Below, piece by piece: positions 2,111 through 9,172 of a DNA stretch of 13,375 nt. The stretch's first letter is position 1; every line of letters starts with the position of its first letter. The notes beneath the pieces are model-generated. The model saw only the letters and a program-made list of their open reading frames with translations. It was not told where the DNA came from and did no database searches. The translations under genes were made by a program, and so were the position numbers. The DNA comes from a virus (Duplodnaviria > Heunggongvirae > Uroviricota > Caudoviricetes), in IMG/VR virus record IMGVR_UViG_2563366977_000006; one strand, written 5' to 3'.

Positions 2111-2145
2111 TACCGCAATTGCGGTATCATTCTCCGCAATTGCGG
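2111..2145. promoter_or_regulatory. two copies of a palindrome (TACCGCAATTGCGGTA at 2111-2126; CCGCAATTGCGG at 2134-2145) upstream of alpA; candidate operator or attenuator
   Basis: Read directly from the sequence: perfect 16-bp and 12-bp palindromes sharing the core CCGCAATTGCGG, lying between the stop of the upstream ORF (2099) and the alpA start (2214). Confidence 0.35.
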
Positions 2146-2213
2146 TGATATCCAATGTCTTACCTGCTTCAATGTCTCCCGTAGGCATCAATAAACAACG
2201 GGAGACGATTATC

Positions 2214-2488: not shown

Positions 2489-3337
2489 ATGAAATTTCCA
2501 AAAACGCCCGTACAGGGGCAGGGCTTCGTTCGGCCTGAAAACCAGAATCTGCAAAATTTTGGCGAAATTATCCCGGTTATTTCCGGCGTTATTGGCGGGC
2601 GTGAAACCAATATTGTTAGCGCCAGAGCGTTGCATAAGGCGCTCGGGGTAGGCCGTGATTTCACTACCTGGATTAAAGGACGTATTGATGAGTACGGATT
2701 TAAAAATGGCGTGGATTTTGAAATTGTAGAAAATTTGTACTTTGATTCCCCGAAACGGGGGAACCAAAGTGTAAATATTGAACAGTTTGATTCTGATTGG
2801 ACAACAAAGCGCGGCGGTGATCGCCGCAGTGAAGACTATTTGATCTCCACGAACATGGCGAAAGAACTGGCGATGGTCGAACGCACCGAACAAGGCCGCG
2901 CCGTTCGCCAGTATTTCATCAAATGCGAGGAGGAGCTACACAAGGTGGCGCCAGTGCGTTCCGCAGCGTTACGCCGGGAACTGAAAGCCCGTATCACCGT
3001 TGCCAGCTACTTTAAGCCGATGTGCGCTGCGCTGGAGGCGTACCGGGCTGAACTGGGTAAAAACACGTTCCAGCACCACTACACCACGGAAGCCAATATG
3101 CTGGCGCGTATCGTGCTGGGTGGCATGACTGCAAAACAGTGGGCACTGGCGAACGGCATCACAGGCGAACCACGCGACCACATGAGCGTGTTGCAGCTTG
3201 AGCACCTTTCTTACCTTGAGCAGAGCAATATCACGCTGATTGAGTTAGGCCAGGACTACCACCAGCGAAAAGCTGAATTAATTCGTCTTTCGCAGCGTTG
3301 GTTAGCCCGTCGCATGGAGGAAAACAGCCATGTGTAA
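2489..3337 (+). CDS. phage antirepressor-like protein (AntA/AntB-type N-terminal domain), 282 aa
   Basis: ATG at 2489 with AGGAG 5 nt upstream. N-terminal motif SARALHKALGVGRDFTTWIKGRIDEYGF resembles the antirepressor-type pattern (..R.LH..L.V...F..W...RI..Y.F). C-terminal half is helical and of unknown family. Assignment is by memory of the motif, not a search. Confidence 0.6.
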   Translation: MKFPKTPVQGQGFVRPENQNLQNFGEIIPVISGVIGGRETNIVSARALHKALGVGRDFTTWIKGRIDEYGFKNGVDFEIVENLYFDSPKRGNQSVNIEQFDSDWTTKRGGDRRSEDYLISTNMAKELAMVERTEQGRAVRQYFIKCEEELHKVAPVRSAALRRELKARITVASYFKPMCAALEAYRAELGKNTFQHHYTTEANMLARIVLGGMTAKQWALANGITGEPRDHMSVLQLEHLSYLEQSNITLIELGQDYHQRKAELIRLSQRWLARRMEENSHV

Positions 3338-4009
3338 CGCTCTGACCGTTACAAAAAGAGAAAGCGCCCCGTTGCCGGAGCGCCTTTGTGAACGAATAGC
3401 CTACTGCGCCATATTGCTTACTGTCTACGAGGCAGATTATAGCGTTGTGGTTGCACAGAGTGAAGGCGTTGATCACCGTTACCACAGCACACCAGAAATG
3501 CAGAATATTTTGCTGCAAAATGTCGTTGGTCACGCTGTCCGGAAAGCAAAAAATTTTGCTGGTGGCGCGACTGATGCGATTTTGTCAGGTCGCCAGGTGC
3601 TGATCAATCTGATGTCTGATTTCGTTCTGGATAAAACAAAGGCGACCGCAGAGGGCCACCAGTGGGAAAGCTACACACTTGAACACATCGCCAACAATGC
3701 CAGATTTGCGGTTGGTGGGCAATGTGATCAGTGTGCTGGCTTGCTGGTGGGCTATTCCTGCTCTTTAACATTGCCATGCCGCGATGTTTTCCAGGTATGC
3801 GACCCCATTTTTGTGCGCCTGTACTCTTTAAGGAATTTCTCAAGGATAAACGCACAGGGCGCGAATCTGTCTGACCCATGCTCGTACGCTATCTTTCTGC
3901 GCTGTCTTTTCCGTGCCGGTGATGGTGTATTGGTTGATTCTTTGTTGGTCATGGCGCTGCCCTGTAAAACGATGCACCGTAGTTCCTTACACCACGGCGC
4001 TGGTGATGG
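3330..4009 (+). CDS. possible translationally coupled gene with unresolved 3' end (possible decayed gene); frame stays open to 4886
   Basis: ATG at 3330 overlaps the upstream stop (cATGTGTAA) and has GGAGG 9 nt upstream, which argues for a real start. The first ~130 codons look protein-like, but later the translation becomes Cys/Ser/Arg-rich and the frame has no stop until 4886, running antisense through the repressor gene and its operators. The end coordinate is arbitrary. Confidence 0.25.
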
Positions 4010-4312
4010 TTACTCCTGTTCTTTGGCCTTGCGGCGCTGGAGTTCTTCACGTGCGACGGTGACGAGCTGCCCGATCTCCTCGACAGCTTTGACTCCGATT
4101 TTTTCCACCTGCGCCAGTGCATTGAGCGAAGAAACCAGGGGATTTTCTCCGCTTCCTTCTGCCTGGCGGCGGGCGATCTCACCACGCATGGCGGTTACTA
4201 TGAATCCGGCGTTGCTTTCGCCGTCCAGTTTTACGGATTCCATACCCTCCATAACATCGTGGGGAACCCTGATCGTTGTCATTTGCGATTTTGCATTTTT
4301 GTATACAGACAT
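4010..4312 (-). CDS. ribbon-helix-helix (Arc/CopG-like) DNA-binding regulator, 100 aa; candidate immunity/maintenance repressor
   Basis: Minus-strand ORF; start ATG at 4312 with GGTGA about 6 nt upstream. N-terminus TTIRVPHDVMEGMESVKLDGESNAGFIVTAMRGEIARRQ fits a beta-strand plus two-helix RHH pattern, followed by a helical/coiled C-terminus. It is divergent from the rightward operon. Confidence 0.7.
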   Translation of the reverse strand: MSVYKNAKSQMTTIRVPHDVMEGMESVKLDGESNAGFIVTAMRGEIARRQAEGSGENPLVSSLNALAQVEKIGVKAVEEIGQLVTVAREELQRRKAKEQE

Positions 4313-4332
4313 AGTTAATCACCAATTAGTTA

Positions 4333-4433
4333 TGTGTATATCACTATACACAAAAGTGAGATATAAAAACACTTGCAATGTATATCACCACAATATAATG
4401 TATATCTCACATTGTGATGGCTATGTATCTCAC
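4333..4433. promoter_or_regulatory. operator-like repeats in the divergent control region (4 copies of ATGTAT(A)TC(T)CAC plus palindromes)
   Basis: Read directly: TGTGTATAtcacTATACACA palindrome 4333-4352; ATGTATATCAC 4378-4388; ATGTATATCTCAC 4398-4410; TCACAtTGTGA palindrome 4406-4416; ATGTATCTCAC 4423-4433. All lie between the RHH gene start (4312) and the first rightward gene (4521). Confidence 0.55.
4373..4399 (+). promoter_or_regulatory. candidate sigma70 promoter for the rightward operon (-35 TTGCAA 4373-4378, 15-nt spacer, -10 TATAAT 4394-4399)
   Basis: Hexamers read by eye. The operator-like repeats overlap the spacer and the -10 element, as expected for a repressible promoter. The spacer is on the short side and there is no experimental support. 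Confidence 0.4.
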
Positions 4434-4520
4434 AATGATCGATTCATAAAAACGACGAAACCCGGCAGTGCGCTAACACTAACCGGGCTTCTAACCAAAC
4501 CGTTAAATGAGGTAACGATT

Positions 4521-4886
4521 ATGGCTGGGGCACAGCATACCCAAACTCACCCTAAATTTATATACACCTTCCTGGCGGTGCACCGTAATTGCATAGCTGA
4601 CGGTAAAAACACTGTTCATGTAGCCGCCGATACGCTGGTTGATGCCTGCGAGATGCTCAATGACATGGGCTATATCTCGGCAACATGGAAAGGGCGCGAA
4701 GAAAACACGCTGTTTATTCAGAAATGCGAAAACAATTTTATCTGGCGTTTTATCGCCCTGAGCACAGCACAACCGCGTGTAATTCACATCGAGGCCACCA
4801 GCGAACAGGAAGCACGCCAGCAATCTCCTGATGGCTGCGTGATGGTATTCGCCGCCCGTATTCGCCAGGAGGTGGAACATGTGTAA
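4521..4886 (+). CDS. hypothetical protein, 121 aa (first gene of rightward operon)
   Basis: ATG at 4521 with TGAGGT ending 8 nt upstream; in-frame part of the long ORF-track ORF 3330..4886. Stop overlaps the next start (ATGTGTAA). Confidence 0.65.
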   Translation: MAGAQHTQTHPKFIYTFLAVHRNCIADGKNTVHVAADTLVDACEMLNDMGYISATWKGREENTLFIQKCENNFIWRFIALSTAQPRVIHIEATSEQEARQQSPDGCVMVFAARIRQEVEHV

Positions 4887-5884: not shown

Positions 5885-6175
5885 ATGAAAAAGAAAAATT
5901 CTGGCTTTACTGCCAGCGGTCTCTCTCGGCCTGAAATCAGACACGGAGATATTTACCGCGACACCATACGTGGGGGACGAGCGGTTATTTGTCACGTTAC
6001 GCCAGGAAATATCACCTACCGCCGTGAGGCTTATGAATATGACTGCATAATGCCGCGCCGTCAGTTTGAGCGTGATTTTATTCTGGTGGAGAACAAACAA
6101 CAGGAAGCGACGAGACGTGCAGCCATGAATATTAAAAAAATCCGGGCAATGTTGGTTGCGGGAGGTAAGAAGTGA
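5885..6175 (+). CDS. hypothetical basic protein, 96 aa
   Basis: ATG 5885 with AGGA about 10 nt upstream. Its stop overlaps the GTG start of the primase gene (GTGA). Confidence 0.55.
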   Translation: MKKKNSGFTASGLSRPEIRHGDIYRDTIRGGRAVICHVTPGNITYRREAYEYDCIMPRRQFERDFILVENKQQEATRRAAMNIKKIRAMLVAGGKK

Positions 6176-7977
6176 AAAACGCACCGAGTCTAAAATATCA
6201 GCCGAAGGATAAATTCACTGAGGTAATCATTTTTGCCGGGACGGATGCTTACGCCCATGCTCAACACTGGATTGAAAGTGAAGGACGAAAACACGGCGAT
6301 AACGTGCCTCCTGTTTACCTGGGGCCAAAGCAACTGGCAGACCTGGCGAATATCCGCATTATTGATGAGAAACGCCGTTTTGCGCGTGTCTATATCGCGG
6401 GGGAGATAGAGCCAATCCAGATCAATACTATCGCTGAAAAGCTGGCGCTGGCTGGCGTACAGGAGGCGAAATTATACAAAGGTATCACCGACCAGGAACC
6501 GGAGAACTGGCGCGACTACCTGCAACGGATCCGCGAACAGGCTGAGCACGGGGAAGTTTCAGTGATGAAATTAGCTACAAAAAATAGTGGTCTACCCAAG
6601 CCTGCATTAAATCAGATGGGAGCCAGCCAGAGAGGAGAAGTGTTACTTGAACATTATGGAGGAGCACTGGCGATAAATGATGATTCTGATGTAGTTCACC
6701 ATTACAACGGAATTGTTTGGGAGCCTGTATCTGATAAGGAACTCCAGCGGTCTATGGCGAAGATTTTTATTGATGCCGAAATTAGTTATTCGCAAAACGC
6801 CATTAAATTTGCCGTAGAGACAATGAAATTGAGTCTACCTGTTATGGGGGGAGCGGACAGAAATCTTATTGGGTTCAGTAACGGTGTTTTTGATATCAGG
6901 ACAGGAAATTTTCGGGAACACAACAAAAATGACTGGTTGTTAAATGCCAGTGAATTACCGTTCAGCCCGCCAGAAGAGGGGGAAACGCTGGCAACACATG
7001 CGCCGAATTTCTGGAAGTGGTTGCGTCGTTCGGTGGCGGATAATGCTCGTAAAGCGGATCGCGTACTGGCGGCATTATTCATGGTACTGGCGAACCGGTA
7101 CGACTGGCAGTTATTCCTTGAGGTAACGGGGCCGGGCGGAAGCGGTAAAAGTGTGATGGCGGAGATTTGTACCATGCTGGCGGGTAAGGCCAATACAGTA
7201 TCGGCGAGCATGAAGGCGCTGGAAGACGCGAGGGAACGAGCGTTAGTGGTGGGATATTCTCTGATTATCATGCCTGACATGACCCGCTACGCAGGTGATG
7301 GTGCTGGGATTAAGGCCATTACAGGCGGTGACAAGGTGGCTATCGATCCGAAACACAAAGCGCCCTATTCCACGCGCGTTCCTGCGGTAGTGCTGGCAGT
7401 AAACAATAATGCCATGTCATTCAGCGACCGTAGTGGGGGGATCTCGCGTCGACGAGTGATATTTAATTTCTCTGAGGTTGTACCAGAGAACGAACGCGAT
7501 CCGATGCTGGCGAAAAAGATAGAAGGGGAACTGGCCGTAGTGATTCGCCATTTGCTTACACGATTTGCCGACCAGGACGAAGCGAAAAGACTACTTTATG
7601 AGCAGCAAAAATCAGAAGAAGCACTGTTAATAAAGCGTGAAGGTGATTCGCTGGTGGACTTCTGCGGTTATCTGATGTCGTTGGTTAAATGTGAGGGGAT
7701 GATAGTAGGTAATGCAGAAATAGTGCCATTTAGCCCGAGGCGATATCTGTATCATGCTTATTTGGCTTATATGTCTGCGCATGGTCTGGGAAAACCGGTA
7801 TCACTGACACGCTTTGGTACAGATATGCCAGGGGCAATGGCTGAGTACGGAAAGGAGTACAAGCGGGCTAAATGCACTAAAGGTCCAGATAAAGGGCGAA
7901 CGATCACAAATGTTCTGTTAGATAAAGATGCTGATGGATGGTTACCAGCAGCGGCAGGCATTAACGACAGAACATGA
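6172..7977 (+). CDS. P4 alpha-like / PICI pri-rep-like replication protein (primase C-terminal region plus SF3-type P-loop helicase), 601 aa
   Basis: GTG 6172 with GGAGG 6 nt upstream. Walker A motif VTGPGGSGKSV, followed by a hydrophobic-acidic stretch LVVGYSLIIMPDM (Walker B-like). Size and position immediately upstream of an iteron origin match satellite/phage-plasmid primase-helicases. Family call is by motif and context only. Confidence 0.8.
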   Translation: MKNAPSLKYQPKDKFTEVIIFAGTDAYAHAQHWIESEGRKHGDNVPPVYLGPKQLADLANIRIIDEKRRFARVYIAGEIEPIQINTIAEKLALAGVQEAKLYKGITDQEPENWRDYLQRIREQAEHGEVSVMKLATKNSGLPKPALNQMGASQRGEVLLEHYGGALAINDDSDVVHHYNGIVWEPVSDKELQRSMAKIFIDAEISYSQNAIKFAVETMKLSLPVMGGADRNLIGFSNGVFDIRTGNFREHNKNDWLLNASELPFSPPEEGETLATHAPNFWKWLRRSVADNARKADRVLAALFMVLANRYDWQLFLEVTGPGGSGKSVMAEICTMLAGKANTVSASMKALEDARERALVVGYSLIIMPDMTRYAGDGAGIKAITGGDKVAIDPKHKAPYSTRVPAVVLAVNNNAMSFSDRSGGISRRRVIFNFSEVVPENERDPMLAKKIEGELAVVIRHLLTRFADQDEAKRLLYEQQKSEEALLIKREGDSLVDFCGYLMSLVKCEGMIVGNAEIVPFSPRRYLYHAYLAYMSAHGLGKPVSLTRFGTDMPGAMAEYGKEYKRAKCTKGPDKGRTITNVLLDKDADGWLPAAAGINDRT

Positions 7978-8011
7978 TACGAAATTTATAAGTTGAAACT
8001 TAAAAGTAGAC

Positions 8012-8340
8012 GGTTGGTAGACAGATACACTTAACCCTCTACCAACCATCTACTAATTAATATTTTGAATTATATAGGTATTTTTAATGTGGTAGAGAGG
8101 TGGACATTTTATTTTATATTTCTAAACCACGGGGGTATCTAAAAATAGATAGTTATGGGTTCATTTTTAAAATTTTTCTTTTAACTATCTACACTGTCTA
8201 CCATTTAGTAAAAATCATTAATTATCAATGTATTAATACGGTAGAGAGTTGGTAGACAGTTTGCAGATTGTTTTTTGTTATGTGTGAACAACATTAAATA
8301 AATCAATCAATTATATCGATAGACAGTTGGTAGACAGTTG
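8012..8340. repeat. putative iteron-type origin of replication: about 7 copies of GGTAGA(C/G)AG in both orientations within an AT-rich region
   Basis: Read directly: GGTTGGTAGACAG 8012-8024; inverted CTCTACCAACC 8037-8047; GGTAGAGAGG 8091-8100; inverted CTGTCTACC 8194-8202; GGTAGAGAGTTGGTAGACAG 8240-8259; ATAGACAGTTGGTAGACAGTTG 8319-8340. Inverted repeat TAGATAGTT (8146-8154) / AACTATCTA (8182-8190) flanks a very AT-rich stretch that could act as an unwinding element. Confidence 0.6.
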
Positions 8341-8345
8341 TAACG

Positions 8346-8888
8346 ATGGGGCAAAGCATGACTAAGCTGACCATTAACAGAAAACCAAAAGGCATTTACG
8401 GCACGCCGCAGAAAACGACGCAGGCGGCGCAAGAGCAGGATAAAACCACATCGGCGCATAAAGTGATGCCCGGTAACCAGAAAGCGCAGCAGAAGCCCAT
8501 AGGGGCGACACCGTGGCGGCATATGACCAAGCGCCAGCGCAAAAACCTCAGGCGCATTAACCGCCTCACTGAGTTGTGGCCTGAATTATTCAGCCGGGAA
8601 GCACCGAAGCCGCTTAAGGTGGGGATATTCGACGACCTGATGCAGGATCTCGCCGTCAGGGGGCTGGCATTCGGGCCAGGGGCATTGCGTGCGACGCTGG
8701 CATCTTATGCGCAGTGTCCGCGCTATTACCGCGCCTTAATGGCTGGTGGGGTACGCTACGACCTGAAATGCCAGCCGTGCGGCGAGGTGACACCACAGGA
8801 ACAACAGGACGCAGAAACGCGGCTGGTTGCGCTGAATGAGAAACGCAAACGTCAGCGTCGGGCAGCAAAGGAGAAAACAGGCGCATGA
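8346..8888 (+). CDS. FinO/ProQ-domain RNA-binding protein with basic N-terminal extension, 180 aa
   Basis: The segment LTELWPELFSREAPKPLKVGIFDDLMQDLA...LRATLASYAQCPRYYRALMAGGVRYDLKCQPCGEVTPQEQQDAETRL parallels the ProQ N-terminal FinO domain (LAERFPHCF...RPLKIGIFQDL...LRSALRLYTSSWRYL...RVDLDGNPCGEL). A second in-frame ATG at 8358 is an alternative start. Confidence 0.75.
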   Translation: MGQSMTKLTINRKPKGIYGTPQKTTQAAQEQDKTTSAHKVMPGNQKAQQKPIGATPWRHMTKRQRKNLRRINRLTELWPELFSREAPKPLKVGIFDDLMQDLAVRGLAFGPGALRATLASYAQCPRYYRALMAGGVRYDLKCQPCGEVTPQEQQDAETRLVALNEKRKRQRRAAKEKTGA

Positions 8889-9172
8889 TTCACGACAGCA
8901 AAGCGGAAGCTCTGGAAGCGCGTGGTCTGTACCGGAGAGCGGCGGCGCGGTGGGCTGAGGTCATCATGCTGGCGAATGATGACAAGGCACGGGAACAGGC
9001 GGCAAAACGTCGCGCGGAATGTATCCACAAGGCAGCACGCCCACCAGCAAGGCAGGATAATTTCGGGGAGATGCGCAAAACCATCAGCCGGGCACATGCC
9101 GGGATGGGATTACATCAGCCCAATGGTGAGGCATTCAGGAAATACCAAAAAAAGAACAATTGTAGTCATTAA
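8885..9172 (+). CDS. PerC-like transcriptional regulator, 95 aa
   Basis: ATG 8885 overlaps the upstream stop (ATGA), with AAGGAG 11 nt upstream. N-terminus MIHDSKAEALEARGLYRRAAARWAEVIM resembles PerC-family proteins as I remember them; not verified by search. Confidence 0.55.
   Translation: MIHDSKAEALEARGLYRRAAARWAEVIMLANDDKAREQAAKRRAECIHKAARPPARQDNFGEMRKTISRAHAGMGLHQPNGEAFRKYQKKNNCSH

Follow-up and report, generated by a model that had tools for sequence, protein, structure and literature searches.

Repressor-operator switches built on ribbon-helix-helix (RHH) proteins and control by cis-antisense RNA are both well known. In the immI region of phage P22 the small RHH repressors Mnt and Arc act on operators lying over the -35/-10 elements of a divergent-promoter region, and Mnt carries, in addition to its RHH domain, a C-terminal helix through which tetramers are formed. 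In Gram-positive phage-inducible chromosomal islands (PICIs), such as the Staphylococcus aureus pathogenicity islands (SaPIs), a repressor of the Stl/Rpr type is encoded divergently from the excision/replication operon, between the int and pri sides. Gram-negative PICIs, which are abundant, mobilise virulence and defence genes; of their regulators, only the activator, AlpA, is known. Their global repressor was called unclear in the founding paper (PMC6092414), in agreement with an earlier sequence-only reading of the DNA studied here, which had considered the repressor of such islands poorly defined; a survey of PICI genome organisation names only the C4/isrK 'immunity RNAs' in the zone concerned (PMC10111431). 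In the searchable literature there is no description of an RHH switch or of cis-antisense control for Gram-negative PICIs, nor any paper on a YlcI/YnfO protein as a PICI regulator or on a SymR-like RNA in satellites. The current work concerns the Caudoviricetes record IMGVR_UViG_2563366977_000006 (13,375 nucleotides; "the window" denotes this whole stretch), which by its anatomy is a Gram-negative PICI, i.e. a PICI-type satellite, and in particular the 208-bp gap between a leftward gene encoding an RHH-like protein of the YlcI/YnfO family and a rightward replication operon headed by an icd-like gene.

We consider it probable, with some reserve, that this region is the regulatory hub of the island, in which two control layers keep the icd-like/replication operon silent. 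Sequence comparison supports a repressor-operator switch with exchangeable specificity, and comparative analysis likewise supports a conserved pair of divergent promoters densely covered by class-specific repeats. Comparative computation further supports a structured minus-strand RNA over the translation start of the first gene, the function of which we infer. The RHH protein and the antisense RNA resemble the "off switch" so far missing for Gram-negative satellites of this class.

The leftward open reading frame (ORF) encodes 100 amino acids, and the gap up to the first rightward ATG (4521) carries five copies of the motif TGTAT(AT)C(TC)AC, four direct and one inverted, designated S1 to S5 from left to right. 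The features of the gap and its borders are listed below, the predicted rightward promoter having been assigned from the sequence and from its relatives.

3974-4000, minus strand: terminator-like hairpin with a T-run, just past the stop codon of the RHH gene (terminator scan)
4010-4312, minus strand (leftward): YlcI/YnfO-family gene
4335-4344, plus strand: S1 (TGTATATCAC), inside the palindrome 4330-4355 and overlapping the leftward -10/+1
4343-4348, minus strand: candidate leftward -10 (TATAGT) of the RHH gene, a TAnnnT box kept next to site 1
4356-4367, minus strand: S2, the inverted copy (TTTATATCTCAC), just upstream of, and abutting, the rightward -35
4373-4401, plus strand: predicted rightward promoter, with -35 TTGCAA (4373-4378), a 17-nt spacer and -10 TAATGT (4396-4401)
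4379-4388, plus strand: S3 (TGTATATCAC), filling the promoter spacer straight after the -35
4399-4410, plus strand: S4 (TGTATATCTCAC), over the -10 and the predicted +1
4424-4433, plus strand: S5 (TGTATCTCAC), at about +16 to +25 of the leader, inside the inverted repeat 4410-4417/4430-4437
4509-4512, plus strand: Shine-Dalgarno sequence GAGG of the icd-like gene
4521-4886, plus strand: Icd-like gene (121 amino acids), first in the rightward operon (NCBIfam NF033153, 80.3 bits)

Allowing at most one mismatch, TGTATATCAC occurs on the plus strand at 4335, 4379, 4399 and 4424, and elsewhere in the 13.4-kb window only once; shuffling gave a mean of 0.78 matches, and none of 200 shuffles reached five. 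Centre to centre, the five sites are separated by 21, 23, 20 and 25 bp. The single further copy (2145-2154, minus strand) is situated about 60 bp upstream of alpA, a number within chance and a suggestive place.

The sequence-only reading had described an RHH protein facing the rightward replication operon across about 200 bp containing four repeats and two palindromes that overlap a plausible -35/-10 pair. All of these elements were recovered: the ORF at 4010-4312 and the operon from 4521, both palindromes (4330-4355 and 4410-4417/4430-4437), the inverted copy at 4356-4367 as a fifth repeat, and TTGCAA-17-TAATGT with S3 in its spacer and S4 on its -10. The right-hand third of the gap is not operator DNA, since 4445-4520 belongs to a minus-strand antisense RNA gene. 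The proposal of an RHH switch of the immunity type gains from the RHH-like predicted fold, the layout common to several genera and the co-variation of repeat and strand; the SymR-like RNA at 4445-4526 had been missed in that reading.

Transcription from the rightward promoter is predicted to start at about 4406-4409; an alternative -10, a perfect TATAAT with a spacer of 15 nt, is found at 4394-4399. For the RHH gene, no convincing leftward -35 was found, and a TAnnnT box (TATAAT, TATATT, TATACT and others) is present next to site 1 in all repeat classes; S1 is a candidate autoregulatory operator from its position. The leader inverted repeat at 4410-4437 (CATTGTGA/TCACAATG here, CCTTGnnnnCAAGG in most relatives) begins about 2 nt past the predicted rightward start and could form a 5'-terminal stabilising leader hairpin; in the window it is not significant by folding (z -0.97).

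The comparison embraced 20 related loci, oriented like the window; their sources were E. coli genomes, contigs with genes for chosen homologues, and a GTDB scan. A colinear layout is common to these loci, which span at least ten genera (Escherichia, Enterobacter, Klebsiella, Edwardsiella, Cronobacter, Xenorhabdus, Photorhabdus, Serratia, Erwinia and Phytobacter), with the sequence of the repeat differing between loci. From left to right, the layout consists of the leftward gene start, a site over a leftward-strand TAnnnT, an A-tract and an inverted site, followed by TTGAC[AGC], a site filling the 17-nt spacer, TAnnnT, another site and often one more; a fifth, downstream site is seen in several repeat classes. 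The sites of all relatives are in register with the -35/-10 hexamers, and the rightward promoters are near-consensus (TTGACA-17-TAAAGT and similar). Loci of one class have unchanged sites but vary in the bases between them, the -10 hexamer included. The class of repeat goes with the sequence at residues 11-16 of the RHH protein; six classes were distinguished:

Strand TT[IV]RV: repeat TGTRTWTCA
Strand LTARI: repeat GTGTAAGAC, in three genera
Strand ISIRI: repeat GTGTGATTCA, in two genera (Edwardsiella and Cronobacter)
Strand KNxRx: repeat GGTGTGTA, in three genera
Strand xNARF: repeat GTGAATACC, in two genera
Strand VAARV: repeat GTGTTCAACAC

For LTARI and ISIRI, the association was also used as a forward prediction, made ahead of fetching the loci concerned. 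After LTARI had been seen with GTGTAAGAC at one locus (L007), Edwardsiella and Klebsiella loci encoding LTARI were fetched and found to contain the same repeats, and a new strand, ISIRI, came with a new repeat, GTGTGATTCA, in Edwardsiella and Cronobacter alike. Two Edwardsiella loci (L023 and L025) have approximately 96%-identical AlpA proteins, the same icd start and the same C-terminal half of the RHH protein, yet their strands and repeats are different; two other loci (L005 and L017) have common repeats and unrelated AlpA proteins. From these contrasts it follows that the repeats track the N-terminus of the RHH protein and not AlpA or Icd.

The 100-amino acid protein belongs to the YlcI/YnfO family (NCBIfam NF041551, YlcI_YnfO_N, residues 8-49, 70.6 bits against a cut-off of 30), and is given the same name by the Prokaryotic Genome Annotation Pipeline (PGAP) in E. 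coli SCU-104. It matched no Pfam family at threshold and retrieved nothing in a PDB sequence search; searches for an RHH family with Pfam, PDB sequences and hhalign gave weak or sub-threshold signals at most. Sub-threshold matches to PF07704 (Rv0623-like) were obtained for 19 of 25 family members (best E 0.00098, below the 28.3-bit cut-off), and some homologues are named 'Arc-like DNA binding domain' in UniRef. An AlphaFold monomer model based on a 25-sequence alignment (mean confidence score, pLDDT, of 82) consists of an extended strand (about residues 11-17), two helices (18-27 and 34-53) and a long C-terminal helix (58-99), thus presenting the beta-strand/helix A/helix B topology of RHH proteins within about 45 residues. 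A G-x-S/T/N turn before helix B is a hallmark of RHH proteins; here, the turn at the start of helix B reads G31-E32-S33, with E32 invariant and the glycine and serine largely conserved among 25 homologues. From the model, an RHH fold is probable. Among structured segments, variability in the protein alignment is highest in the strand (1.44 bits, with R15 invariant) and lowest in helix B (0.60 bits), which is the pattern expected of a specificity determinant in an RHH protein. The repeated sites and the way strand and operator vary together would agree with the RHH habit of binding repeated DNA sites as homodimers, through a two-stranded antiparallel sheet. The terminator-like hairpin directly after the stop codon suggests that the gene is monocistronic.

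With respect to P22 Mnt and Arc, the locus resembles immI in the small size of the protein, for which RHH-type binding is predicted, and in operators placed over -35/-10 of a divergent-promoter region, while the predicted helix 58-99 resembles the tetramer helix of Mnt. It differs in that no significant sequence similarity to Mnt or Arc was found, in having five spaced sites of about 10-12 bp instead of a single 17-21 bp operator, and in belonging to a satellite rather than to a phage.

Both namesakes of the family, ylcI and ynfO, are situated in lambdoid prophages. In K-12 prophage DLP12 (L028, 4252-4834), a gap of 388 bp separates ylcI (DUF3950) from nohD, a divergently oriented gene for the terminase small subunit. 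In a PICI of E. coli PKF11 (L004, 2744-2923, minus strand), the positional place of the RHH gene is occupied by a gene for a 59-amino acid protein with faint, in-register YlcI/YnfO similarity (28% over 40 columns), which has repeats of its own (GTAATGTGT) and a TTGACA -35 within its first codons; judged by its sequence, this locus indicates that the switch design is common to more than the YlcI/YnfO family.

The widely conserved part of the region, according to blastn, is not the repeats but 4448-4560. At least 1,138 of 5,426 complete E. coli genomes contain this part, mostly in islands, whereas 46 contain the whole module. An Rfam search of the interval returned one match, to SymR (RF01809), on the minus strand and over its full length (35.9 bits, E 1.5e-5), a score below the Rfam gathering threshold of 61. 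The RNA predicted at this position, which rests on Rfam, folding, covariation and strand asymmetry, comprises the following elements:

4445-4526, minus strand: cis-antisense small RNA, SymR homologue
4534-4539, minus strand: candidate -10 (TATGCT) of its promoter, 7 nt before the A at 4526 and inside the first codons of the icd-like gene
4526-4493, minus strand: 5' hairpin, complementary to the Shine-Dalgarno sequence and ATG of the icd-like gene
4491-4457, minus strand: 3' hairpin with a long, G·U-rich, terminator-like stem
4456-4445, minus strand: U-rich tail

The RNA starts at the complement of AUGGCU (AGCCAU), with the anti-Shine-Dalgarno sequence in the loop or stem of the first hairpin. 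The minus strand folds into two hairpins at each of the 16 loci tested, with energies of -27 to -39 kcal/mol as compared with -18 to -29 for the plus strand; in the window, minimum free energies are -33.8 kcal/mol (z -6.1) and -19.3 kcal/mol (z -2.2), respectively. An alignment of 15 sequences yields a consensus of 18 pairs, in which 99.3% of structure cells are paired and nine pairs show compensatory double changes, values reached in none of 500 shuffles; slid controls gave 34-48% pairing. On the minus strand 268 of 270 cells are paired against 236 of 270 on the plus strand, and all 32 G·U pairs are minus-strand pairs that would become C·A mismatches on the plus strand, which identifies the minus strand as the functional one. 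A role of the 4457-4491 hairpin on the plus strand, as an attenuator or processed sense RNA, was rejected on these G·U pairs, the weaker plus-strand fold and the lack of a plus-strand U-tract after it.

A covariance model, R1, built only from PICI sequences, finds the RNA in loci outside its training set (40-76 bits) and also detects K-12 symR (30.8 bits, E 9e-5), placing its 5' end where SymR is annotated to begin, such that detection is reciprocal. As in symE/SymR, the RNA folds into two hairpins, has its 5' end a short way into the target ORF and is antisense to the start codon and Shine-Dalgarno sequence of that ORF; the loop GTGCGCYAACAC and the linker CTAAYCA are near-identical. The TAnnCT of the promoter is kept in relatives, and the spacing of -10, 7 nt and +1 A equals that of K-12 SymR (TAGAAT). 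By sequence comparison, the antisense RNA is a SymR homologue outside the curated Rfam family. It differs from SymR in its target, an Icd-like ORF (NF033153) heading a replication operon instead of symE, and in the upstream control, which is an RHH-type repeat array here and a LexA box at symE. The symE leader together with SymR (L019, 1336-1480) is homologous to the PICI icd-leader/antisense module, a likeness that ends a few codons into the ORF; the comparison suggests that symE/symR arose by capture of a satellite regulatory cassette. SymR-like copies scoring 62-76 bits with R1 are also present in phage mEp460 (L020, 1461-1542), Klebsiella phage P12620-1 (L021, 1465-1546) and E. coli 042 (L003, 2961-3042); being outside any obvious RHH/icd/primase context, these may represent remnants or independent uses of the cassette. 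A search of a phage database with the RNA region returned short remnants only, in few phages.

In the switch proposed here, the YlcI/YnfO-family protein would act as an RHH repressor of the rightward promoter and provide the first layer of control. Its dimers would insert their N-terminal beta-strands in the major groove at the five sites, each about 10-12 bp long and some two helical turns from the next, and the long C-terminal helix may join dimers into higher oligomers, as in Mnt or TraM. Occupation of S3 and S4, over the spacer and -10/+1, and of the flanking S2 and S5 would exclude RNA polymerase from the rightward promoter, and S1, over -10/+1 of the protein's own promoter, would confer autoregulation. 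The N-terminal arm, the strand and the operator region would then behave as an exchangeable specificity ('immunity') cassette. As a second layer, a constitutive SymR-like RNA (about 80 nt), with its promoter within the icd-like ORF, would pair with the Shine-Dalgarno sequence and start codon of leaky sense transcripts; by analogy with SymR/symE and P1 c4/icd-ant, this would block translation of a toxic Icd-like protein and probably lower expression of the downstream replication genes. Induction is more speculative: helper-triggered AlpA might drive the adjacent AntA/Bro-type 'antirepressor' gene, or another factor, through which the RHH repressor would be relieved. A wider proposal, which we regard as possible rather than probable, is that a large class of Gram-negative PICIs has its long-sought repressors in RHH proteins of the YlcI/YnfO type, which operate through exchangeable 'strand + operator' immunity cassettes with a SymR-type antisense RNA, and that chromosomal symE/symR is a domesticated copy of a satellite's antisense-controlled leader.

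A number of observations weigh against the two-layer switch. A consensus promoter scan of 3900-4750 returned no sites; the rightward promoter was missed because its hexamers match only 7 of 12 consensus positions, so that its assignment rests on positional conservation in relatives with TTGAC[AGC]-17-TAnnnT. The antisense promoter has a plausible -10 and no convincing -35, and the U-tract after the 3' hairpin is interrupted. Codons 1-17 of the RHH gene lie only about 25-120 bp from the sites, and the association of strand with operator could arise from linkage, both being inherited as one recombination block. The TTIRV strand of the window and the TTVRV strand of Xenorhabdus are near-identical, yet their motifs differ at 3 of 10 positions, which implies that the strand alone does not have full control of specificity. 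Furthermore, EcCIMP1, an island of E. coli MP1 that uses the same attachment site, has no RHH gene, and published induction of Gram-negative PICIs is explained by AlpA activation with no repressor invoked (PMC6092414, PMC11773190). The term 'master repressor', used in the sequence-only reading, is accordingly too strong: AlpA is the demonstrated activator in related islands, and some relatives at the same attachment site, EcCIMP1 among them, lack the RHH gene and carry a P4-type C4/CI RNA instead.

Among other explanations, the RHH protein might bind the repeats and serve merely as a local autoregulator, a Cro-like modulator or an antitoxin-like partner, with silencing due to the antisense RNA, to H-NS or to lack of AlpA. 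We regard this as unlikely, as four of the five sites are on the rightward promoter and leader and not on the protein's own promoter, and as the near-consensus rightward promoters of the relatives would be strongly active unless repressed. Nor was a conserved toxin partner found: the RHH gene ends in its own terminator, and the downstream ORF (3752-3952) matches no family and has no counterpart in related loci. A type II toxin-antitoxin pair was rejected on the same two grounds, the missing partner gene and the terminator directly 3' of the RHH gene. It is quite improbable that the repeats are binding sites of AlpA or another island factor, with the RHH protein unrelated to them. AlpA is needed for expression of the PICI genes downstream of alpA in EcCICFT073 (PMC6092414) and for mobilisation of EcCIMP1 (PMC11773190), and the additional one-mismatch copy of the motif lies upstream of alpA; that copy is, however, within the chance expectation given above, sites in the spacer and over -10/+1 are placed for repression and not for activation, and near-identical AlpA proteins occur with different repeats (L023, L025) just as unrelated ones occur with the same repeats (L005, L017). 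On this absent co-variation, AlpA was rejected as the binder.

That the repeats are instead sites of a helper-phage or host protein, such as LexA at symE, their variety reflecting different helpers, appears very improbable. The homologous symE leader does have a LexA box in the corresponding place, ahead of its SymR-like module, PICI induction depends on specific helpers, and ylcI and ynfO are prophage genes; however, each of the six motif classes coincides with the strand class of the adjacent protein across genera, and the sites of the window do not fit CTG-N10-CAG, the spacing on which a LexA box was rejected. Barely credible is the remaining explanation, in which the repeats would be iterons of an origin, an origin of transfer (oriT) or a partition site and the RHH protein an accessory like TraM, TraY, ParG or omega. 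The sites of the relatives are always registered on -35/-10 hexamers, gene and family scans of the window disclosed no relaxase or ParA/ParF partner, and iterons of the GGTAGACAG type constitute a separate origin at 8005-8340, directly after the primase gene in the usual PICI place; the gap was discarded as replication origin for this reason.

The two-layer switch can also be set beside the leader RNAs of P4 and P1. The c4 RNA of P1 targets a translation start region, and in P4 and in P1 c4-icd-ant, as here, a regulatory RNA is found in the leader directly upstream of an icd-like ORF, the P4 operon ending in a primase gene. P4 and EcCIMP1 differ from the window in having a sense-strand, processed C4-type RNA (74.9 and 81.1 bits), no RHH gene and no R1 match. 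In the window there is no C4, isrK or c4-a1b1 match at E<=1, and none in 4380-4600 at E<=10; a P4-type CI/C4 or IsrK RNA in the leader was rejected on this 221-nt Rfam search, in which controls scored 75-81 bits. At the position of the RHH gene, operators and SymR-like RNA, EcCIMP1 (L027, 16600-16827) and P4 (L022, 1921-2193) contain C4 and isrK RNAs and an 'ash' pseudogene. The RHH/operator/SymR-like module and C4/isrK are thus alternative immunity modules before a common icd-like/primase operon. In other respects EcCIMP1 is a close relative, with the same attachment site (tRNA-Thr/proA), a near-identical integrase family and the gene order int-alpA-AntA...Icd-primase...PerC (PMC11773190). 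The papers on EcCIMP1 and EcCICFT073 describe neither an RHH gene nor a SymR-like RNA (PMC11773190, PMC6092414). As to Stl/Rpr, the divergent arrangement of repressor and operon is comparable, as is the proposed role, quiescence of the island until a helper acts (PMC6092414); Stl proteins are, however, larger helix-turn-helix repressors relieved by direct binding of a helper protein, compared with a predicted RHH protein of 100 amino acids here, and in the window int is co-oriented with the replication operon, unlike in Stl-type islands.

On this interpretation of the locus, satellites would use at least two interchangeable 'immunity' modules, a P4-type CI RNA or an RHH protein with a SymR-like antisense RNA. 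The locus offers a candidate repressor with mapped predicted operators and a six-class strand/operator table that predicts the outcomes of swaps. SymR, so far seen as a chromosomal type I antitoxin, would join a larger satellite-borne RNA family present in about one fifth of complete E. coli genomes.

An island identical to the window is found in the chromosome of E. coli SCU-104, at tRNA-Thr next to proA, and the window displays the feature set of Gram-negative PICIs, i.e. int, alpA and a primase gene followed by an iteron origin, integration at a tRNA site and no structural or lysis genes. Helper-phage induction and packaging have been demonstrated for its relatives EcCICFT073 and EcCIMP1 (PMC6092414, PMC11773190). 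Its remaining features are:

1-1215: integrase
1344-2099: hypothetical gene
2214-2411: AlpA gene
2489-3337, plus strand: AntA-type 'antirepressor' gene
Between 4886 and 5885: small ORFs of the rightward operon
5885-6175: DUF4222 gene
6172-7977: D5/P4-type primase-helicase (Pfam D5_N/DUF5906/Pox_D5 and annotation of the identical genome)
8346-8888, plus strand: ProQ/FinO-family gene
8885-9172, plus strand: PerC-family gene

At 8005-8340, directly 3' of the primase gene, the iterons, which occur in both orientations, flank an AT-rich palindromic core, and this segment is the probable replication origin of the island. The Rfam int-alpA RNA motif (RF02996) is located at 1259-1327 on the plus strand, between the integrase stop codon and the next ORF, with 44.7 bits against a gathering score of 35.8. 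The AntA/AntB-type gene, annotated by PGAP in SCU-104 as a pseudogene with an internal stop, is an intact ORF of 282 amino acids here; the C-terminal part of its product may be truncated, which would be relevant if it acts as an anti-repressor of the RHH protein. The gene for the ProQ/FinO-family RNA chaperone overlaps that of the PerC family. In F-like plasmids, the antisense RNA FinP, about 80 nt in two hairpins, is complementary to the ribosome-binding site of an operon's first gene and is partnered by FinO, and the island likewise combines an RNA of this shape with a ProQ/FinO-family protein; by this analogy alone, the protein could serve as a chaperone of the SymR-like RNA.

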